DNA from: a virus
Lineage: Duplodnaviria; Caudoviricetes
Direction: 5' to 3' (one strand)
IMG/VR virus record: IMGVR_UViG_3300044475_000311
Span: 1 to 25,939 of that record
Length of the DNA: 25,939 nt
Shown: piece after piece, positions 1,663 to 17,362 of the stretch
Position numbering within the stretch: position 1 is the first letter of the stretch
Layout: each line of letters starts with the position of its first letter
Translations under genes and position numbers: made by a program
The notes under the pieces: model-generated
Database searches by the model: none
The model's input: only the letters and a program-made list of their open reading frames with translations
Told to the model about the DNA's origin: nothing

Positions 1663-3147
1663 ATGGCTAAGAAAGACAAAAAGAAAGAATCGAATAGCCC
1701 CCAATCAGTTGGGGGCTATTTGTATTCGCAGCAAGCTGAAATGGCATTTCTGAACTTTCTGACACGCATGCCTGATTTGGATGAGGTGTTAAGAAAAGCA
1801 GGTGTACCACGTCATCGATTATCAGTATTGATGTATGACGATGAGATCTATCAGTGTGTTGAGAAGCGTCAGGATAAACTTGAAGCCGCTCCATTTCGAT
1901 TGGAGCCAGCGGAAGGATTACCTGCTCAAATTCTACAGAGTGAACTTAAGAAATGGTGGTCTGAACTGGTATTGGGTACTCAAGATGCGCGCTGGTATGG
2001 ATATTCAGTTCTTGAGGCTGTTTATACAAAACCAGAAAATCCATCTTTATTTATTGAGGGTCCCAATATCACCACATTCATTGGCTGGCAATGGGTTGGC
2101 AAAAAGCCCATGCAGTGGTTTGAGCCTAAGAATGATGGTCGATTGATGTTATTGCAAAACTATAATGATCAGCACCGTGATATTGAGTGTAATCAACAGT
2201 TCAAGCATTTCTTAACGCAGTGTAAGCCTAGTTTTGAAAATCCTTATGGTGAAGCTTTATTCAGCCGACTCTACTGGTTGTGGTTCTTTAAGAATGGAAC
2301 TGTGAAATACTGGGCGAAGTTCGTAGAGCGCTATGGTAATCCAATATTAAAAGGCAAGTCTAAGAATGTGCCAGCTATGCTTAAAGCGCTACTAAATGCA
2401 CATGCAAGTTCAGTACTCTCACTTAATCCAGATGAAGATGCTGATATTATTTCGGCATCATCAAATGGTACTGGTGGATCAGCAGCATTTGAGAGTTTTG
2501 ACAAGAAGATTGAGCGAAGCATTCAAAAGCTCGTGCTTGGCCAGACCTTAACCAGTGGTACCGATGGAGCAGGATCAAGAGCCTTGGGTGAGGTTCACCT
2601 AGAGGTTCAGAATAATAAAGTTGATGCTGATATTCGGATGATTACCTCGACTATTCAAGCCATGATCGATGCAATTTGTGCCTTGAACAACTGGGAACGT
2701 CACATCATCGTCATTGGGGATGAGAAATCCTTGAATGCTCCTAAGGCTGACCGTGACGTGAAGCTAAAGAACGCAGGTGCCAACCTGACGAATCAGTACT
2801 TCATGCGAGAGTATGGATTGCAGGAAGGTGATGTTGTGGATATTCAGCAATTGCCGGCCAACACTCAATTCTCAGCATTACCAAGACGTGCATTTAGTTT
2901 TAAAGCTGATGTTCAGGGTTTAGATGCAAATCAGCAAGAAGTTGATGAAAAGATTTCTGAGATTGATAAAACGCTATTTTCTGAATCAGAATTAATGGAA
3001 TTAGTTGAAGCATCAATTGATGTGAATGATTTGCAAACAAAGCTTTATGGCTTGATGTCTGGTGAGTCTGTTGAAAAATTCACTGAAACAATGGCTAGAG
3101 CTTTGTATTTATTTGATGTGATTGGATATGTGCAACGGAGTAAGTAA
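1663..3147 (+). CDS. Portal protein (DUF935 / Mu gp29-like)
   Basis: Follows terL; motifs NPYGEALF, WAKFVERYGNP, LVLGQTLTS and SRALGEVH are characteristic of DUF935 portals. Confidence 0.92.
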   Translation: MAKKDKKKESNSPQSVGGYLYSQQAEMAFLNFLTRMPDLDEVLRKAGVPRHRLSVLMYDDEIYQCVEKRQDKLEAAPFRLEPAEGLPAQILQSELKKWWSELVLGTQDARWYGYSVLEAVYTKPENPSLFIEGPNITTFIGWQWVGKKPMQWFEPKNDGRLMLLQNYNDQHRDIECNQQFKHFLTQCKPSFENPYGEALFSRLYWLWFFKNGTVKYWAKFVERYGNPILKGKSKNVPAMLKALLNAHASSVLSLNPDEDADIISASSNGTGGSAAFESFDKKIERSIQKLVLGQTLTSGTDGAGSRALGEVHLEVQNNKVDADIRMITSTIQAMIDAICALNNWERHIIVIGDEKSLNAPKADRDVKLKNAGANLTNQYFMREYGLQEGDVVDIQQLPANTQFSALPRRAFSFKADVQGLDANQQEVDEKISEIDKTLFSESELMELVEASIDVNDLQTKLYGLMSGESVEKFTETMARALYLFDVIGYVQRSK

Positions 3148-4412
3148 TGACGATCAGTTATACAGATGCTCTGCGTTATGCACGTAATAAGAAAGTTGTT
3201 TTACCTGAAGAGTTTTATTTGCTGGATTTGAATGCAAGGCAGTATGCAACCACAGTTAGTAAACTAGCTTCTCTTGATCAGATCCGAACCGTTATTAATC
3301 TATCCAATAAGGCGATTGAAAGCGGTTCAACATTTCAAGAGTTTAAAGAATCCATCAAAGCAGAAGGTATTGAGCTAAGTCCACACCATCTTGAGAATAT
3401 CTTTCGAACCAATATTCAGAGTGCTTATGCACATGGTATTTGGACGCAGCAGCAAGAGAATAAAGTCAATAGACCTTATTTGCGTTACTCATCTTTAACA
3501 GATAGTAGAGTTCGCCCAAGTCACTTAGCTTTAAACAATATTGTTCGGCACATTGATGATTCATTTTGGTACACATACTACCCGCCAAATGGCTATTTAT
3601 GCCGATGTGGTGTAGATGCATTAACTGAGGCGCAGGCGATAAAGTTAGGTATTACACCTGATGATAAGCTGCCTAGTGTTCAGCCTGATAAGGGCTGGGC
3701 TGTAAGTCCTGCGAGTTATGGAAAGCATTTAAATGTGGTGGTTCAGGAAAAGATTACTGATGCACTAGCTGTTGATGCACCTCTTGCATCTGAATTGATC
3801 AATGTGCGAGACGAGGCATTGCTTGCTCAACAAGCGAATGATGAAATCGTTAAAGTTTTTCAACCTATGTCTGACCAATCTCGAAAGAATCTTGAAGTGA
3901 TCGTAGATCGTGTGATTGATCAAAACAAGGATGTAGAGCCGAGTGCGATACGAATGTTGACTGAGTTGATTCGTGAAGATGAACAATCACTGACTGACCT
4001 ATTCAAAACTTCAATCATGAAAGACGATACACAATCGAATGTCATTGTGAATTGGATGAAGCGTTCTTTTGATTCCCTTATGAAAGTCGCCAAGAATCTT
4101 AAAACTAAGCTCACAGGTAATAACATCAAAGGTTTTGATTCGCTGAATTTGCAGAAAGGCAATGTTATCGGTATTCAAACGCCAACATTATTTAGAACTG
4201 CGGAACAAACAGGGAAGAATATTGTCATTACAGATGCAAATGGTGCTGCATTGGATTTGACTAAATTTAATGGTTTGAATGGTGCCTTACTTGCTCCTGA
4301 TTTGAATCTAGAGGTAATTAGCATATCTGATACAGAAATAGTGCTTAGAAAGACAAACGAGGTTGCTACGCGACTATTTGTTGCGAATAACACCGTATAT
4401 AGCTTGAGTTAG
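3147..4412 (+). CDS. Minor head protein, MuF (Mu gp30/SPP1 gp7) family, with C-terminal extension
   Basis: NIFRTNIQSAY, DSRVRPSH and FWxxxYPPNGYLCRC motifs in the first ~190 aa; about 230 extra aa follow. Confidence 0.9.
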   Translation: MTISYTDALRYARNKKVVLPEEFYLLDLNARQYATTVSKLASLDQIRTVINLSNKAIESGSTFQEFKESIKAEGIELSPHHLENIFRTNIQSAYAHGIWTQQQENKVNRPYLRYSSLTDSRVRPSHLALNNIVRHIDDSFWYTYYPPNGYLCRCGVDALTEAQAIKLGITPDDKLPSVQPDKGWAVSPASYGKHLNVVVQEKITDALAVDAPLASELINVRDEALLAQQANDEIVKVFQPMSDQSRKNLEVIVDRVIDQNKDVEPSAIRMLTELIREDEQSLTDLFKTSIMKDDTQSNVIVNWMKRSFDSLMKVAKNLKTKLTGNNIKGFDSLNLQKGNVIGIQTPTLFRTAEQTGKNIVITDANGAALDLTKFNGLNGALLAPDLNLEVISISDTEIVLRKTNEVATRLFVANNTVYSLS

Positions 4413-9526: not shown

Positions 9527-9578
9527 ACAGGCACAAAGAATACCAGGCGCATGAGCGTCTTTTTTTGTGCCTGTTTTT
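9527..9578 (+). terminator. Compound (nested) terminator hairpin
   Basis: Inner AGGCGC-atga-GCGTCT plus T-run. Outer ACAGGCACAAAGAA (9527-9540) pairs with TTTTTTGTGCCTGT (9561-9574) and is followed by more Ts. Confidence 0.75.
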
Positions 9579-9589
9579 AGGATTCCATC

Positions 9590-10183
9590 ATGAATGATTT
9601 CTTTATTGCAGCGAACCGTAGCTTAAGCCTTGAGATTGATGATGTCTCGCTTGAGGTTCGCCAGATCCAAATGAGCCAGTTTGACTTATGGGTGGGTGCT
9701 GCTGATGCTATTAAGAATACACTAGGAAATGTAAGCGATTATTCAGATGAAATTCTTAAGAAGGTAATTCAAAAGCATCTGATTGAATGCGTAGTGATGC
9801 TTCAACTCATCACCGATTTGGACCATCAGTCCGTATTGAAAACGGCAGAAGATCAGGACGTATTTCGACAACTTCTTAAAACTGGCCTAAAAGCCAATCA
9901 GGCATATTTCGTTGATAAAGAGCAGAAATCGAAACGACGTAAAAAGCGCACCGAAGTAAACGATCAGAGTTCAACTTGGTTTGATTCATTCCAGTTATTG
10001 GTATCGAATGGTCATAGCCATGAAAGCATTATGAATATGACCTATGGAGCATTTAAGTTCTATACGGAAGCAGTTGTGAAACGTGAAAAGCAGAGCATCA
10101 CTACTCAATCCAATATTATTCGTATGGCGCATCACGCAGCAGCGAAGCAATTTAAAAGTTTTATTGATGAATTGAAGGAATAA
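9590..10183 (+). CDS. Tail assembly chaperone (gpG- and gpT-like parts in one ORF)
   Basis: Directly after the tail tube gene. First half ends in N.AYF; second half W....LVSNGH....I..MTY resembles the usual downstream chaperone ORF. Confidence 0.7.
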   Translation: MNDFFIAANRSLSLEIDDVSLEVRQIQMSQFDLWVGAADAIKNTLGNVSDYSDEILKKVIQKHLIECVVMLQLITDLDHQSVLKTAEDQDVFRQLLKTGLKANQAYFVDKEQKSKRRKKRTEVNDQSSTWFDSFQLLVSNGHSHESIMNMTYGAFKFYTEAVVKREKQSITTQSNIIRMAHHAAAKQFKSFIDELKE

Positions 10184-10256
10184 AAAATCTTTAATTTCCT
10201 GCTATTTATTTTTACCTTTAATTAAAATATTATTCCTGAAAATTAGAGGGGATAAC

Positions 10257-11369
10257 ATGAAAAAGATAATTTTATTAGCAATAATGCTGGGGCTTGTTGG
10301 ATGTGGGGAGAATGGTTCATCTGATGTCACTTCAACTACAAACAATCAAAGCACAGAACTAACATCGAATAACATTCAACAAGCGTCTGCTCGATCAATA
10401 TCTACGTATTCAATGACAGTGCCTTTTGATGGGTGGCATTTATATAATCCAAAGGCTCTGGGAGCTTCAGCATTATATGAGGGGATTAAAGACGCACTTA
10501 CATCATCAGCTGTACTGACAGCAGATGCTTCTCAGGTAGCTAAAGTCTTAGGGAAAGGAGTTGCAGGTTATGCGCTTTCAGTAGCAGTTGAGGAGTTGCT
10601 CGGGGCTGTTGATTGGGTGTTGGATCCTGAAAATAATCGAATTAAATATACAGTTAAGCCTTTAGATCCTAAAGATCCTACTGTCCAATATTATTACTCT
10701 ACAGGTTCAAAAATGAGTAATGGCCAATCAGCATTTGGTCTAACAGCATTGCAAGCTTGTCAGAATTTGATAGCAGGTTCTACATTTATGGTAGGCAAGA
10801 CTGCTAATGCTGAGGAGATAGCAAAGTACAACGATAGATATTGCTTTTATGATAAAATTTCGATGTTTGGTAACATTTATAGAGATAAAAATCCAGCTTA
10901 TGACCCTTCCGCAAAAAAAGAAGAATATCTACCTCTAGAAACCGTTGCCCAAAAAGTAATTGAAAATGCTGATGCTGGCAGCCAAGATGCTCAAGTGGCC
11001 ACAATGGCGGCAGCCGCACAGAAACTTGCAGATGCTGCAAATGATGAAGAGATAGAGCAAGAAATTGTTGATCAGTTAGAAAATAAATCTCAATGTCCAA
11101 GTGGTATTGTTAGAAATGGTAGCTGTTGGGTTTGTGATAGATCACAATTTATGCCGATAACCAGAGCGACAAGGGATGCTAAAACTGCTGCAAGAGGAAA
11201 GAGCTGCGAATATGTAACAGATCCAGTAATTAAGGCAACTAATGCTGTTTTTTGGAGAAATTTAATAAATGCAAGAATTCAGGAAAATGCTTGTTGGTCA
11301 CCTGTTGATCCAAACCATCTTATAGAACTAAATAATAATCGAAATGCTCTAAGCCGATGCGAAAATTAA
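10257..11369 (+). CDS. Lipoprotein with inovirus pIII/TspB-like central region and Cys-rich Ntox16-like C-terminal toxin domain
   Basis: RBS GAGGGG; MKK + hydrophobic core + lipobox LVG-C16; S/T/N-rich linker; GVAGYALSVAVEELLGAVDWVLDPENNRIKY and YLPLETVAQKVIENA blocks recalled from Acinetobacter filamentous-phage TspB-like proteins; C-terminal ~90 aa with 6 Cys and an AR-x5-C-x4-DxxH-x11-C pattern. Confidence 0.7.
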   Translation: MKKIILLAIMLGLVGCGENGSSDVTSTTNNQSTELTSNNIQQASARSISTYSMTVPFDGWHLYNPKALGASALYEGIKDALTSSAVLTADASQVAKVLGKGVAGYALSVAVEELLGAVDWVLDPENNRIKYTVKPLDPKDPTVQYYYSTGSKMSNGQSAFGLTALQACQNLIAGSTFMVGKTANAEEIAKYNDRYCFYDKISMFGNIYRDKNPAYDPSAKKEEYLPLETVAQKVIENADAGSQDAQVATMAAAAQKLADAANDEEIEQEIVDQLENKSQCPSGIVRNGSCWVCDRSQFMPITRATRDAKTAARGKSCEYVTDPVIKATNAVFWRNLINARIQENACWSPVDPNHLIELNNNRNALSRCEN

Positions 11370-11371
11370 TT

Positions 11372-11902
11372 ATGAAAGTAAATACCAAAGAGCTTCTCGA
11401 AGAGATTTTCCCTCCTTTCCCATTAGGGGATAACCGCTCTCTACTTGAGTGTGATTTTTATGATACACATTATGGATATTTTGAACAAATTGATGATGAT
11501 TACTTATCTTCAATAGGAGTGTCTGCAGAAGACTTGATTCTTGAATATAACTTTGACTGGCCTGAATTTTATTTAAAAATTGGATTAGAAGCAGCTTGTT
11601 CACGTAGCAGACCGCATGAGGGGATCAAAACATGGAAAGATGTAAGTTATGAATACTTGTATTACTTTGGGCAAAACTGTAGTTATTTAAGCTCAGAGGG
11701 CTTTAAATTCTTTTTACCTGCTGCATTCTATTATTTTCTATCAACTGATGAAAATAAAACTTACATGGACTCATTCGTTTTTAGGTTGAACTCACAATGG
11801 GAAAAAGATCAACACGTTTTTGACGATGACCAAAAAAAATTTATTATTGAATTTGTAAGTGACCATTATAAAGGATATGTATCCTGGATACCTGAACTTT
11901 AA
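11372..11902 (+). CDS. Putative immunity protein, DUF6714-like
   Basis: ATG 2 nt after the upstream stop (alternative ATG at 11357 overlaps it); acidic and aromatic, no signal peptide; TW..V....L.....CSYLSSEGFKFFLPA motif recalled from DUF6714. Confidence 0.62.
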   Translation: MKVNTKELLEEIFPPFPLGDNRSLLECDFYDTHYGYFEQIDDDYLSSIGVSAEDLILEYNFDWPEFYLKIGLEAACSRSRPHEGIKTWKDVSYEYLYYFGQNCSYLSSEGFKFFLPAAFYYFLSTDENKTYMDSFVFRLNSQWEKDQHVFDDDQKKFIIEFVSDHYKGYVSWIPEL

Positions 11903-11918
11903 TAAAATTACCAGTAGT

Positions 11919-11980
11919 AGCTCAAATTTAACCTGACAGGGACACTAAAAAATGGGTAACTGTCAGATCGGGTTTGAGCT
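11919..11980. repeat. 21-bp imperfect inverted repeat / long hairpin
   Basis: AGCTCAAATTTAACCTGACAG (11919-11939) versus CTGTCAGATCGGGTTTGAGCT (11960-11980): 16 Watson-Crick pairs, 3 G-U, 2 mismatches. Confidence 0.8.
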
Positions 11981-11990
11981 GGTACAGATT

Positions 11991-12013
11991 AAAGCACCCT
12001 AGGGTGCTTTTTT
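11991..12013. terminator. Probable bidirectional terminator between convergent genes
   Basis: Perfect 20-bp palindrome AAAGCACCCTAGGGTGCTTT plus further Ts, abutting the stop codon of the minus-strand repressor. Confidence 0.85.
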
Positions 12014-12611
12014 AAATCAAGCCTTGTCTGTAAACAATTTTCCCTAATACGATTATTTCGGACTCGTTTATTGATTCTTGATCAGAATATGATTTGTTAT
12101 CTCTAACAATGTTAATCAACCCATCTTGGCTTCGATAAAGGCGAACAGCCATTTTTTCGCCATAAAAGTAAATCAAGAAGAGTCTTCCGGAAATAATATC
12201 TCTAAATGTTGTATCAACCAAAACCAAATCTCCATCCAAAAGAGTTTCCTCCATGGCATTTCCTTGGATTTTATAAACACTCAAGTCTTTGATTGGGTGG
12301 AAACGGTTTTTAGTACAAAACTCTCGAGATAAGATGATTTTATCGCCACTATCATTCCGGAAAATGACTTGTTGATCATCCTCAAGATCATTTAAATCAA
12401 GAGAACATAGGTCACTATTGCTAAAGACCTGATCGCTTATCTCAAGTGCATTTAATATTTTCATATAAGTTGATTGGCGTGGTTTAGATGAGCCAACTTC
12501 ATAATCAGAGACTTGCTTACTAGATATACCAACGCGCTTTGCAAGCTCAACTTGAGAGAGATCTCTCAAGGAGCGGAAATATTTTAAGCGGGTAGAAAAA
12601 TCATTTTGCAT
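12012..12611 (-). CDS. XRE-family HTH repressor with degenerate S24 (LexA/CI-type) C-terminal domain
   Basis: RLKYFRSLRDLSQVELAKRVGIS..QVSDYE.G.SKP helix-turn-helix; IQGNAME..L.DGDLVLVD, RDNKSY and VLGKIV of the S24 fold. Confidence 0.88.
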   Translation of the reverse strand: MQNDFSTRLKYFRSLRDLSQVELAKRVGISSKQVSDYEVGSSKPRQSTYMKILNALEISDQVFSNSDLCSLDLNDLEDDQQVIFRNDSGDKIILSREFCTKNRFHPIKDLSVYKIQGNAMEETLLDGDLVLVDTTFRDIISGRLFLIYFYGEKMAVRLYRSQDGLINIVRDNKSYSDQESINESEIIVLGKIVYRQGLI

Positions 12612-12621
12612 AGGGATCCTA

Positions 12622-12653
12622 TTTACACTTACATAAACTTATAGTAACTTACA
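12622..12653 (+). promoter_or_regulatory. Candidate promoter overlapped by three phased direct repeats
   Basis: TTTACA (12622-12627)-17 nt-TAACTT (12645-12650); ACTTA at 12627, 12637 and 12647 (10-bp period) in the divergent intergenic gap. Confidence 0.45.
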
Positions 12654-12686
12654 CAAACCAACAGAATATTATAGGAATCTATAAAT

Positions 12687-12884
12687 ATGTATACTTGCGC
12701 TTATGATGACGAATTAGCAGAGATTGTCAAGAAGGCAGCAGAAAGAGATGACAGGTCTATAAAAGGACAATTTACCTATTATTTAAAAAAGGTTTTGCGT
12801 GAAGAAGGTCTTCTGGAAAATCTAGACAATAAAAAAGCAGATTGCACTCGCCAAAGTAATCAATCTGCTTCTGTTCAACCCTAA
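12687..12884 (+). CDS. Arc-like ribbon-helix-helix DNA-binding protein
   Basis: DDELAEIVKKAAERDDRSIKGQFTYYL fits the Arc pattern (L...+...A....RS+..E/Q+...L); directly upstream of the antirepressor. Confidence 0.75.
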   Translation: MYTCAYDDELAEIVKKAAERDDRSIKGQFTYYLKKVLREEGLLENLDNKKADCTRQSNQSASVQP

Positions 12885-12901
12885 GCAAAGGAATCAAACT
12901 C
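12831..12901 (-). ncRNA. sar-like antisense RNA covering the antirepressor RBS
   Basis: Minus-strand promoter TGGAAA (12936-12931)-17-TAAACT (12913-12908) inside the ant start; minus-strand terminator AAGCAGATTG/CAATCTGCTT followed by a T-run. Confidence 0.65.
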
Positions 12902-13741
12902 ATGACAAGTTTAACTCAAATTGCAGTCCCTTTCCATAATGCCGAGCTTTATGTTGTAGAGCATAAAGGACAGCCTTACACACCATTGCGTCAAATTGTG
13001 CAGGGCATGGGATTGGATTGGGCTTCACAATTTGTGAAGATAAAACAGAAGTTTGAAAGCTGCGTTGTGGAAATCACAATGCAGATAATGGGTGATGATC
13101 AGGCACGCTCACACACATGCATCCCAGTGCGTAAGTTGACTGCTTGGCTATATTCTGTAAATCCAAACAAAGTAAAACCAGAACTCCGCGATACCGTGAT
13201 TAAGTATCAAGAGGAATGTGACGATGTGCTTTGGGATTATTGGACAAAAGGACAAGCTGTAAACCCAAGAACGACGAAAGTTGAGCGAACTCCACTTCAC
13301 GATGCACACGCAATGCTAGTTGCTAAAACCAAGCACTTAAACTCAAGTGATGCATGGAAGTTAATCCTTCAGCGATTCGATGTTAAAAGCATTAAAGAAA
13401 TTCCATACGAGGCAATTCCTGTTGCTGTGGAATATGTTCATCATTTGATTGCCATGTATAGCAATGCAGACAAGATGCAGTTGGCGGAACCATGGAAAGA
13501 CCAAGATGTGCAATTCCTAATGTGGTATGTGCCAAAAATAGCTAAGCTCATTAAAAATGAGTTTTATCCAGCATTGACGTTACTCAGAAGTGAGTATGCT
13601 GCGCAAATGATTGGGATGGCTCAAGAGATGGCTTGTCACGCAAACATACTGAATCAAGCAGCTATAAAGAATGGGATGACAACTTATAACTGTTTAGGTG
13701 GACAGGCAGTCCATACAATGAAGTGGTATTTAGAAAAGTGA
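12902..13741 (+). CDS. ant: Phage antirepressor (P22 Ant N-terminal domain)
   Basis: VPFHNAELYVVEHKGQPYTPLRQIVQGMGLDWASQF, WLYSVNPNKVKPELRDTVIKYQEECDDVLWDYWTKG. Confidence 0.92.
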   Translation: MTSLTQIAVPFHNAELYVVEHKGQPYTPLRQIVQGMGLDWASQFVKIKQKFESCVVEITMQIMGDDQARSHTCIPVRKLTAWLYSVNPNKVKPELRDTVIKYQEECDDVLWDYWTKGQAVNPRTTKVERTPLHDAHAMLVAKTKHLNSSDAWKLILQRFDVKSIKEIPYEAIPVAVEYVHHLIAMYSNADKMQLAEPWKDQDVQFLMWYVPKIAKLIKNEFYPALTLLRSEYAAQMIGMAQEMACHANILNQAAIKNGMTTYNCLGGQAVHTMKWYLEK

Positions 13742-14344: not shown

Positions 14345-17300
14345 ATGGCTGGCAGTTTAGATTTCAACTTGAACTTATTGGCCAATACCACAGGCTTCAA
14401 TCAGGGAATGAATGGGGCAAAATTCGCTGTAAATGCACTTGTTGGTGCGATGGCGGCTCTGGGTGTTGGTTTAGGGATTAATGAATTAGTTCAAGCGGCT
14501 GATAGCTACACAAACCTTTCAACACGAATCAATATTGCTACCCGAGAGGGTGGGAATTTTAACGAGGCAATGGCTGGTGTCCATCAAGTTGCCCTGATGA
14601 CTAATTCAAGTCTTGAGGCCACAGGCAGTCTATTCACTCGTATCAATACGATTGGTAAAGACATGGGAATGTCTCAGCAACAAGCTTTGGATTTAACCAA
14701 GACTGTTACTCAGGCAATTCAAATTGGTGGTGGATCAGCTCAAGCAAGTGAAGCGGCTGTACAGCAATTTATTCAAGCTATGCAGGGTGGCGTACTTCGT
14801 GGTGAAGAGTTTAACTCCATCATGGAAAACGGCTATGGGCTTGCTGAAGCATTAGCGAAGGGTTTAGGAGTTACTACAGGCGAACTCCGTAAGATGGCTG
14901 AAAATGGAGAGCTTTCATCAGAGCGAGTCATTAAGGCTATTCAGTCTCAATCTGCATCGATCCAAGAAACGTACAACCAGTTCCCAACAACGATTTCCAA
15001 TGCTTTGCAAAAGATCGCTACTTCTTGGCAGATCTTGATTGGTGAAATGGATCAGGCAAATGGAGCGTCGGCTACTGTAGCGCAATGGCTGTCTACTCTT
15101 GCGGATAATTTAGATGTTGTTGAGGTGCTGCTTAATGATCTTGGGACTGGATTTGTCTGGTTTGGGGATCAGCTTAAGAAGATAGACCCAGCCACAATTG
15201 AGGCCTTAAAAACAGCATTACTTTCAGCATATGATGCCATTAAGTCTTTAGGTTCAATGCTTGCTGATGCTTTTGAGCGTGGTGTAGATGTAATTAATAC
15301 CATGCTAGGGCAAATATTTAATTTTTCTAGTGGTATTGATTCTGTTACTGATAAAACCAACGGGCTCACCAAGGCATTACAAGCTGTCAATGTGGTTTTT
15401 GGGTTTTTGAGTGATGGTTTTAACGGTCTAAATATTGGTATCAATTTAATTGTTGGTGCTGCTTATGATGCCGCTGCAGCCTTTAGTTATTGGAAATCAA
15501 AAATCACTTTTGGTGAAACATCAGCGCAAGCTTTAAAAGATTTTGAGGTGATGAGCGTAAAGGCTCAGGAGTATTATAAAAAATCAGCTGATGGGGCGAT
15601 GGAGTTTAAGTCTGCTGGAATTGAGGCGATAAGACAAATTGGGTTAACCCAAGAACAGAAGAATGATGAGAGTGTTGCGAATAATCAGAAAACTCTAAAT
15701 GACCTTAAAGCCCAAGAGGAAAAACATAAGTCTGATTACAAAGCTATCAGTGATGAGCGTCTTCGCTTAGAGCAGCAATTATTTGATGCTCGTAAGTCTG
15801 GTAACCAAGCATCTATTGATCTGGCTACGAAAGGCTTGGCTGAACTGGATGCCAAGGAAAAGGCATATCAAGCTGAAAGCCAAAAAATCACTGATGCCAA
15901 GATTGAGTCAGCACAAGCAATTGCTACAGCAATGATTCAATCAGCTGATGCTGCTGGTATGGCTCAACTGAAAGTTCTGAATGCTCAACTTGCTACCCAG
16001 GGCTTAAAAGCGGAGTTTGATAGCACTGGCAAGGTCATCGTTAGTGCGATGACAATCAGTGTTGAGTCTGTTGCCTCCTTGGAGGGAAAGTTGGCGGCAG
16101 GGCGTAAGGCAGCCAATGCCTTGGGTCTGGATTTAGATAATATCTTGAATCGTGTCTCAGATGGATTTTCTTCTAAGCAAACATCGCTTGATGGTTTTGC
16201 AAAAAGCCTAGAGTTGATGGGTGTTAAAGGTAAGGAGGCGGGTGAGGCAACGTATTTGGCTTGGGTTAAATGGCTGGAAACTGCTAAGAATCCGGCTGAG
16301 GTGGATGCAGCCAAAGCTAAACTTTTAGAGTTTGAGAAGCAGGGTGTTTTTTCCACTAAGCAAGTAGAACTTGGTGTGGAGGCTATTCGCCGTGTTACTC
16401 AGCAATTACCTGATGACCTTGATCCTGTTGAGCAAGCTTTTGAGCGTTTAGGTATTAAAACCAAGGAGCAACTTAAACTTGCTGCCCAGTCAGCCTTAGC
16501 AGATTTCAATACGATTCAATCAAGCGGCAAAGCTACTGCTGATCAGTTGAAACAAGCTTATGAACGGACAATGCAAGCTGCAGTTGCTTCTGGGGATCAA
16601 GTAACCATATCGGCAGCTAAAGCTAAAGCGGCTCAGTCTGGGTTGAATGTTGAGGTTGATGAAACAGGGAATGTGGTTGTACAGACTTATGATGAAATGA
16701 ATAGAGCTGTGGAAAGCCATTCTCAGCGGGTCTCAGGTAGTGCTATTAGTGCCTACCGTGAGATGGGACGAGCAATTCGTGAAGAAGCCAAAAGCTCAAT
16801 CGAAGCATGGAACGAGATGATGGATGCTCGATCCAAGGCCGAGAAAGAGAATAAGACACAGCGTGTTGGCGCTGATTTCACTTCATATAACATTGCTGAC
16901 ATTCAATCTAAATTGACAAGCATGGGATATGACGATGCAGAAGCAGCTAAACTTGCAAAAAACATTCTGAATCAAGGCTTAGAGATTGACAAGAATAAGG
17001 CGCGTGATGCGAGAAACACGGGTGGTCTATATGGTGATTACAATGCCAAGGCATTTGAAAAATTAATAGCTCAAGGGCAAACCTCAGCATTCGGTACCAA
17101 GAAAGTAGAAGAGCTCTTGGCGCGATATATGTCAGGTCAAGGATCTGCAACAGCAGGTACCAAGAGTGCAGCTGTTAATGCTCTGGCACCCGAAGTGAAT
17201 GTGGCGGTACCGACAGCTACTGTAGAGCAGCCATCAGCCAAAACTGTGACCTATAACCTTTCAATTGGTGGGAAAACGGTAGAGGTATCAGGGGATGAGT

Positions 17301-17362
17301 CATCTCAAGTCGATATGAATGCATTTATGAGTGAGTTAGAGCGACTCAAAAAAGGTATGTAA
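14345..17362 (+). CDS. Tail tape measure protein
   Basis: 1005 aa, Ala-rich and helical; N-terminal ADSYTNL..RI and QFIQAMQGGVLRGEEFNSIMEN tape-measure motifs. Confidence 0.95.
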   Translation: MAGSLDFNLNLLANTTGFNQGMNGAKFAVNALVGAMAALGVGLGINELVQAADSYTNLSTRINIATREGGNFNEAMAGVHQVALMTNSSLEATGSLFTRINTIGKDMGMSQQQALDLTKTVTQAIQIGGGSAQASEAAVQQFIQAMQGGVLRGEEFNSIMENGYGLAEALAKGLGVTTGELRKMAENGELSSERVIKAIQSQSASIQETYNQFPTTISNALQKIATSWQILIGEMDQANGASATVAQWLSTLADNLDVVEVLLNDLGTGFVWFGDQLKKIDPATIEALKTALLSAYDAIKSLGSMLADAFERGVDVINTMLGQIFNFSSGIDSVTDKTNGLTKALQAVNVVFGFLSDGFNGLNIGINLIVGAAYDAAAAFSYWKSKITFGETSAQALKDFEVMSVKAQEYYKKSADGAMEFKSAGIEAIRQIGLTQEQKNDESVANNQKTLNDLKAQEEKHKSDYKAISDERLRLEQQLFDARKSGNQASIDLATKGLAELDAKEKAYQAESQKITDAKIESAQAIATAMIQSADAAGMAQLKVLNAQLATQGLKAEFDSTGKVIVSAMTISVESVASLEGKLAAGRKAANALGLDLDNILNRVSDGFSSKQTSLDGFAKSLELMGVKGKEAGEATYLAWVKWLETAKNPAEVDAAKAKLLEFEKQGVFSTKQVELGVEAIRRVTQQLPDDLDPVEQAFERLGIKTKEQLKLAAQSALADFNTIQSSGKATADQLKQAYERTMQAAVASGDQVTISAAKAKAAQSGLNVEVDETGNVVVQTYDEMNRAVESHSQRVSGSAISAYREMGRAIREEAKSSIEAWNEMMDARSKAEKENKTQRVGADFTSYNIADIQSKLTSMGYDDAEAAKLAKNILNQGLEIDKNKARDARNTGGLYGDYNAKAFEKLIAQGQTSAFGTKKVEELLARYMSGQGSATAGTKSAAVNALAPEVNVAVPTATVEQPSAKTVTYNLSIGGKTVEVSGDESSQVDMNAFMSELERLKKGM

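Follow-up and report, generated by a model that had tools for sequence, protein, structure and literature searches.

Polymorphic toxins are built from a conserved N-terminal carrier and an exchangeable toxin tip, with an adjacent immunity gene and with orphan modules, and among their tips is Ntox16, an alpha-helical family defined by an arginine and a [DNE]xxH motif and listed with no immunity protein (Zhang et al., 2012, PMC3482391). In the MuF toxins, which occur in tailed temperate prophages and mainly in Firmicutes, the carrier is itself a phage protein, which belongs to the head of the phage that encodes the toxin (Jamet et al., 2017, PMC5576092). Here we describe a two-gene cassette (10257-11902, + strand) in IMG/VR virus record IMGVR_UViG_3300044475_000311, of which the whole stretch of 25,939 nucleotides was analysed and is called the window below. 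Gene 1 (10257-11369), an open reading frame (ORF) of 370 aa with a lipobox, has the polymorphic-toxin layout and the Ntox16 residues, but its carrier is not RHS, FilH, PVC, MuF or MafB. That carrier is related to entry proteins of Acinetobacter filamentous phages (inoviruses), and gene 2 (11372-11902, + strand; 176 aa) is the predicted cognate immunity protein of gene 1, of family DUF6714. We think it probable that gene 1 encodes an antibacterial polymorphic toxin on a carrier derived from the inovirus pIII/TspB protein, which would be exported, released and able to enter other Acinetobacter by the phage's own route.

The origin of the carrier is the central observation. Residues 53-277 of gene 1 match, by hidden Markov model (HMM), the N-terminal part of proteins of 400-480 aa encoded on small viral contigs, and over this region of about 225 aa the identity to Acinetobacter inovirus proteins is about 40-48%. 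The genes of these long homologs lie in the order Rep-coat-X-DUF2523-Zot, where Rep is of the rolling-circle type; in 48 of 54 long-form loci a pVI-sized ORF and then a Zot-like Walker A gene follow downstream, the other six being cut by the locus end. Proteins of the pIII type are usually recognised by size and position (PMC7911016). The NCBIfam TspB C-terminal domain was found in all eight long homologs scanned, one long homolog is annotated 'attachment protein [Inoviridae]', and the equivalent slot in Acinetobacter phage M02 (orf3) also matches the carrier. By homology and gene position, we equate residues 53-277 with the N-terminal portion of the TspB-type protein that occupies the pIII slot in filamentous phages of Acinetobacter; the homology is demonstrated to Acinetobacter proteins and not to Ff pIII or Neisseria MDA ORF6.

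What gene 1 has in common with M02 orf3 and its relatives ends at residue 277. Where the phage proteins continue into the TspB C-terminal domain and anchor, gene 1 carries a toxin tip; it has neither a match to NF041109 (the TspB C-terminal model) nor a hydrophobic tail, no coat, pVI or Zot gene is adjacent to it, and its context is a tailed prophage. Of the long tails, 87 of 93 end in a hydrophobic segment, whereas not one of the 98 short tails does. Because this end is kept in the long forms and never in the short ones, the toxin reads as a pIII-slot protein whose anchor half has been replaced by a tip: it appears to derive from a virion pIII, yet is not one itself. An earlier, sequence-only reading of this DNA had described a central domain followed by an acidic helical linker. 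The domain is real, but its identity as the N-terminal part of an inovirus pIII/TspB protein had escaped that reading, and the acidic helices are not a linker but belong to the conserved inovirus-derived carrier.

Within the carrier, two conserved parts enclose a variable one. Part 1 (aa 53-133; 10413-10655, + strand), a beta-sheet with a helical hairpin, shows homology to the N-terminal end of the inovirus protein from Acinetobacter (HMM matches), and part 2 (aa 222-277; 10920-11087, + strand) consists of the acidic helices common to the inovirus protein and ends at the junction where tips are exchanged and orphan tips start. Between them lies a hypervariable middle containing a Cys pair (aa 134-221; 10656-10919, + strand), which is exchanged independently of both carrier and tip. 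Homolog P0002 has the same tip and flanks that are 86-100% identical to gene 1, around a middle with 24% identity, and a contig of run X3 swaps window positions 10628-10936 for 295 other bases. Mean identity over the conserved, middle and conserved segments is 57/16/59% among toxin rows and 67/18/64% among inovirus rows; the shared pattern suggests that toxins and phage proteins are under the same kind of receptor-driven selection. We infer that residues 134-221 are a candidate receptor-specificity module, and the window protein and P0002, which differ mainly in the middle, form a natural pair for testing recognition by that domain in toxins and phages.

Two quick, unrooted trees of 145 columns, with 21 toxin rows among 54 phage rows (L082 being excluded from the second, and L006 and L013 being counted with the lipobox forms in the first although their N-termini are decayed), made the toxin rows a single group or close to one, and in the second a single toxin clade was not rejected (p-AU 0.72). 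We take the direction to have been from phage to toxin, since the phage protein is essential and diverse. Among other carriers, Pyocin_S appeared as a sub-threshold Atlas lead (0.77, under the tool's bar) and was not among the 25 of 33 families shown for 75 carrier rows; a profile comparison gave no verdict, as none of 201 sampled genomes contained the family, and the window carrier had no Pfam match at E<=1. A MuF carrier was not found, as gene 1 has no Pfam match and the phage's MuF gene is a separate one (3147-4412). The carrier model itself is confident (pLDDT 90.4 overall and 94-97 over aa 63-132). The full gene 1 model had no PDB match at E<=0.001, a sequence search of the PDB returned designed repeats only, and BFVD gave four unnamed matches at E<=4e-7; we do not take the blanks of the fold searches as proof of a new fold.

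The evidence that genes 1 and 2 form a toxin-immunity pair comes from their relatives. From the 551 proteins found in a homolog search the best 120 were inspected, and after the conserved junction near aa 277 these diverge into unrelated tails. Three of the 98 distinct short tails are inovirus proteins truncated at contig ends, and the remaining 95 fall into nine families unlinked by BLAST. Exchange is seen in both directions: P0004 shares 86-96% identity with gene 1 in all four carrier segments but 12% in the tip, and P0008 bears a tip with 94% identity to that of the window on a different, plain-signal carrier. The gene that follows changes with the tip. For 22 pairs from 19 loci, 231 comparisons gave 46 in which tip and next gene were both similar, 171 in which neither was and 14 that were discordant; the two thus agree in 217, the exceptions are borderline and all within the Ntox16/DUF6714 group, and inside groups the two identities track each other. 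These counts are descriptive only, because the loci are related.

Orphan modules complete the picture. At a prophage end, locus L130 (5449-11415, G003:C1) has a full toxin gene with its immunity gene after lysis genes, then four orphan modules of tip plus immunity gene, and also one spare immunity gene; each of the four modules starts with the carrier end, and two closely resemble the window's tip and DUF6714 gene. Orphan tips also occur in L012 and L019, and L084 has two extra DUF6714-like genes; the window itself holds no orphan module or spare immunity gene. The genome that carries L130 has a second toxin-bearing prophage, L016, with two further full toxins arranged in tandem. The sequence-only reading had called the cassette a polymorphic toxin with a linked immunity gene and had proposed to test whether C-termini and downstream genes vary together; its reading is supported by the nine tail families, the covarying next gene and the orphan arrays. 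We regard it as very probable, as a prediction from comparative genomics, that genes 1 and 2 are a toxin-immunity pair.

The tip of gene 1 (aa 278-370; 11088-11369, + strand) is a predicted nuclease-type domain, modelled as a three-helix bundle. It has six cysteines, at residues 280, 290, 293, 317, 346 and 368, the first codon lying at 11094 as had been noted from the sequence. Its Ntox16 membership rests on homologs and profile comparison and not on its own Pfam score. Homologs P0051 and L006, at 34-36% identity, pass the PF15523 cut-off (28.7 and 26.5 bits), and a tip profile aligned to a profile of RHS/eCIS-type Ntox16 domains with an HHalign probability of 99.2% (E=3e-19). Moreover, RHS and eCIS proteins that end in above-cut-off Ntox16 are recovered with a profile built from ten tips (29 of 101 matches were scanned), R340 and H354 are invariant in 49 sequences, and D351-x-x-H354 fits [DNE]xxH. 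In the Atlas structure search the top row was an Ntox16 cluster (TM 0.74, below the tool's naming bar), and against the PDB the tip fold gave generic three-helix bundles only (best Z 8.0, MIT-like). A PF15523 search of 401 genomes found nothing, but was uninformative since the control was equally silent. The tip is best described as a predicted divergent clade of Ntox16, outside cut-off membership.

Other tips were seen in passing. The cysteine-rich version also ends the unrelated carriers P0217, P0213 and P0221, one of them with a transglutaminase domain, and the tip of L035 (6871-7113) has a weak Ntox24 match (E=0.069). The tips of L016 and L020 (L016 8102-8302) may be akin to Ntox34, and those of L025 and L062 (L025 6071-6349) to Ntox33, although no such Pfam match was obtained.

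Gene 2 begins with an ATG at 11372, two nucleotides past the gene 1 stop. The ORF listing starts this frame at 11357, but we prefer 11372 because the closest homologs are 176 aa long. As first read, it is acidic (pI 4.4, against 8.9 for the basic tip of gene 1) and has no evident signal peptide. Its suggested identity as DUF6714 (PF20461) held, by a narrow pass (27.4 bits against a cut-off of 27, E=3.9e-6). At 21 Ntox16 loci of other taxa, 19 of which had a following gene to scan, DUF6714 was found next to Ntox16 at E<=0.01 in 14 and above the cut-off in five, and orphan DUF6714 copies occur in L084 and L130. As 14 of these 21 unrelated loci carry it in the next position, DUF6714 is the likely immunity family of Ntox16; no paper on DUF6714 was found in the open literature.

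The N-terminus of gene 1 was correctly seen to hold a hydrophobic stretch, a lipobox and a flexible linker. The predicted lipoprotein signal peptide (10257-10304, + strand), recognised by sequence, hydropathy and lipobox counts, ends at LVG-C16, and the NCBIfam lipoprotein model matches weakly (E=0.007). It is followed by an S/T/N/Q-rich tether (aa 17-52; 10305-10412, + strand) that is predicted to be disordered (pLDDT <50) and, by alignment, is absent from plain-signal relatives. The sequence-only reading made the lipoprotein route the defining feature of the system, and comparison does not support this framing: in many relatives a plain signal peptide precedes the carrier, while tips and partners are unchanged in kind. 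Because both versions bear the same tips, we consider the lipid anchor a variant and not the route.

This bears on the best placed of the alternatives, in which the pair would be a SitA-like lipoprotein toxin with its immunity protein, delivered by contact or vesicle fusion, the pIII part being merely a stalk or adhesin. SitA toxins are also lipoproteins with a variable toxin tip and an immunity gene on mobile DNA; the difference is that here the anchor is optional and the carrier is inovirus-derived. A lipobox with a long disordered tether, lipobox forms in at least two branches of the carrier tree, and a carrier with no structural link to known Tol-binding domains would all suit such a toxin. 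On the other side, 25 of 63 Ntox16-like tails come from lipobox proteins and 38 from proteins with no detected lipobox, some of these being fragments, and the near-equal conservation patterns of toxins and phage proteins point to receptor-driven selection. We consider SitA-like delivery unlikely.

Both cassette genes have named homologs almost exclusively in Acinetobacter. The carrier profile matched 42 of 247 Acinetobacter genomes, loci being obtained for 30, and the toxin form was confirmed in at least 18 of the 247, with some copies broken. Damage to copies of the family takes the form of an internal deletion in L008, frameshifts in L084 and L010, and lost N-termini in L006 and L013. The deletion in L008 (5992-6297) is an in-frame loss of nearly the whole carrier and most of the tip, and the immunity gene there is intact. 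In a sample of 400 genomes from the class, the carrier was found in one, the centre genome itself, and not in the other 399 searched, from which absence is not implied. By PHROG match, a structural or lysis gene of a tailed phage lies close to fifteen toxin loci; L010 lies near a terminase fragment, and eight loci, L130 included, adjoin an endolysin-type gene; three (L009, L011 and L012) lie among host genes, and inspection of flanking ORFs placed none within an inovirus gene set. The toxin family appears, from these neighbourhoods, to be spread by tailed prophages. One of the host-borne copies, the plain-signal cassette L009 (5938-7502), sits between sbcC and genes read as yggS-pilT-pilU; these pilus-retraction neighbours may be due to chance.

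Bacteriocins and filamentous-phage entry share the Tol route. Tol-dependent colicins and S-type pyocins work in a similar way, with a receptor and entry module, a toxin tip and an immunity gene, often beside lysis genes, and are not known to have signal peptides. In the mechanism that we propose, Sec would export the gene 1 protein, as a lipoprotein in the window and in soluble form in relatives, so that the toxin would be kept in the producer's envelope, and it would be released through prophage lysis or vesicles; eight relatives lie next to an endolysin gene. By analogy with Ff pIII, the middle domain would recognise a variable surface receptor, and the conserved part of the carrier would exploit TolA/TolQRA or another inner-membrane system of this kind. 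Inside the target cell the tip would attack a cytoplasmic substrate, probably nucleic acid, and lysogens would be protected by DUF6714. A cytoplasmic nucleic-acid target is suggested by the partner's lack of a signal peptide and by the pairing of a basic tip with an acidic partner. For the phage side, the N-domains of Ff pIII bind the pilus and TolA (PMC7911016), and binding of a filamentous phage to the type IV pilus is known in A. baylyi (PMC12378983). That the carrier still functions as an entry module is rather probable. We also lean, with a little less assurance, towards the wider proposal that these proteins are genus-wide Acinetobacter bacteriocins, with tips mounted on a filamentous-phage entry module, using the Tol route, re-targeted by swaps of the middle and spread by tailed prophages.

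Several points weigh against this proposal. The carrier model gave no clear match in the PDB (best Z 4.5) and none in Foldseek, and solved pIII domains of Ff or CTX were not among its listed structure matches; TolA binding is thus proposed from gene position and analogy. The case of Neisseria MDA ORF6 makes the pilus step less secure: transduction depends on this adsorption protein, yet it does not bind pili (PMC12819557). Uncoating and DNA entry are driven by the C-domain of Ff pIII (PMC7911016), and because the toxin lacks this domain, crossing of the inner membrane is unexplained. In the window protein a lipid anchor would tether the toxin, and no releasing protease was recognised. A single origin of the toxins is weakly supported, the first tree requiring one change (support 58) and the second two. 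As for the tip, 'nuclease' is a general prediction for Ntox16 made by Zhang et al. (2012, PMC3482391), and the window tip alone scores 13.8 bits against PF15523 (E=0.071), under the cut-off of 25; the fit to Ntox16 suggested at first sight therefore stands on the profile comparison, the arginine and the DxxH motif, and fails on the Pfam cut-off.

Superinfection exclusion by Ff pIII offers a different use for such a carrier. In an anti-inovirus defence by the tailed prophage, the periplasmic pIII-like domain would occupy the entry receptor and the tip would kill the producer once a filamentous phage engages. Such a defence would fit a carrier that stems from an inovirus entry protein and is directed to the envelope, and also a moron slot that houses other accessory genes. 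However, orphan tip-immunity arrays and spare immunity genes fit conflict between cells and not suicide, the tip family is common to RHS and eCIS effectors, and PADLOC found no match for gene 1 or the tip. We judge this explanation quite improbable, and the related suggestion of an abortive anti-phage effector, made in passing by the sequence-only reading, gained no support.

Still less probable is that the protein travels with co-resident inovirus or tailed virions, being packaged on them and delivered in a MuF-like manner. Some genomes do hold both forms (G002), the toxin genes are located among late phage genes, and MuF toxins are an earlier example of toxin genes in temperate phages (PMC5576092); but all 98 short tails lack the C-terminal hydrophobic anchor, a signal peptide separates the toxin from head assembly in the cytoplasm, and L009, L011 and L012 lie among genes of the host. 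The least credible explanation, an addiction module or decaying cargo with no between-cell role, would suit the five broken copies but not the export signals of intact copies, the retained invariant residues or the continued exchange of two modules.

Read as an exported toxin on a phage entry module, the cassette falls within the known polymorphic-toxin kind and appears to define a new trafficking class. It differs from MuF toxins in that its carrier comes from another virus family, the single-stranded DNA inoviruses, has an export signal and occupies variable slots. No pIII- or TspB-carried toxin was described in the open-licence papers and preprints searched, subscription literature being outside the scope of that search, and the main text of Zhang et al. 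(2012, PMC3482391) does not mention 'TspB' or 'filamentous phage'. If the proposal is true, polymorphic toxins gain a new delivery class, and filamentous-phage entry proteins gain a direct evolutionary link to bacteriocins, through a shared protein domain that we did not see in the papers found; one virus family would be carrying another family's key as a weapon. With DUF6714 named as its likely immunity family, the uncharacterised Ntox16 toxin becomes clonable and testable, and the family offers natural, small, narrow-range antibacterial candidates for Acinetobacter.

The window spans the head-and-tail genes of a tailed phage: those for terminase, portal, MuF protein, protease, capsid, major tail protein and tape measure, and other tail genes. 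The gene upstream of the cassette (9590-10183, + strand) follows the major tail gene, is a tail chaperone by position (PHROG 14432, of unknown function) and marks a variable slot: the cassette follows it in two of 31 related prophage loci, L090, where it is 100% identical to the window, and L094, the remaining loci carrying varied small genes. By this comparison the slot is a genuine moron hotspot, in agreement with the sequence-only reading, although that reading's placement of the cassette between tail chaperone and tape measure is right only on the chaperone side. The tape measure gene begins at 14345, beyond a downstream flank (12012-13741) comprising a cI-like repressor on the - strand, an Arc/ParD-like ORF and an antirepressor. 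This block accompanies the cassette in L001/L094 and looks like a second moron in the same slot, and related antirepressors occupy the same slot of L093, L101, L104, L110 and L116. A break suspected in the tape measure gene was ruled out, 14345-17362 being intact.

The cassette was described at first as AT-rich, which is true but modest, its GC content being 36.8% against 42.2% for the window. Gene 1 (38.6%) is near several phage genes (39.1-39.7%), gene 2, at 33.1%, has the lowest value among 18 measured genes, and the GC3 values of genes 1 and 2 are 0.24 and 0.27 against 0.28-0.43 for other genes. A promoter scan gave nothing that stood out (nine sites, against 9.6 in shuffles). The cassette had also been credited with its own terminator: a hairpin with A and T runs at about 11991-12013 (no strand assigned) does fold (-12.5 kcal/mol) and is a predicted bidirectional terminator, but the convergent cI-like gene stops right beside it and probably shares it, and the consensus terminator scan did not list it. 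A contig from an RNA library over 10936-11947 was not counted as expression, as contigs cannot show transcription and DNA is possible, and a weak joint skipping 9578-11991 in the same run search, with 25 bases on one side, was not counted either.

Between gene 2 and the terminator lies a long imperfect stem-loop (11914-11985, no strand assigned), which folds and to which no role is assigned; an Rfam scan gave no match within the cassette or for 11914-11987. The region 11914-11987 recurs in several unrelated contigs with other flanks, multiple contigs cover only 11918-11987, and it is possibly a repeated intergenic element. The exact pattern of its arms occurs in six of 179 loci, all of the window's phage or of strain ANC 4173. 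Elsewhere in the window, the MuF head gene at 3147-4412 has a C-terminal extension of about 200 aa; the extension itself matches nothing in Pfam or PHROG, and no small gene comes after it; MuF proteins with extended C-termini in Proteobacteria are mentioned by Jamet et al. (2017, PMC5576092).

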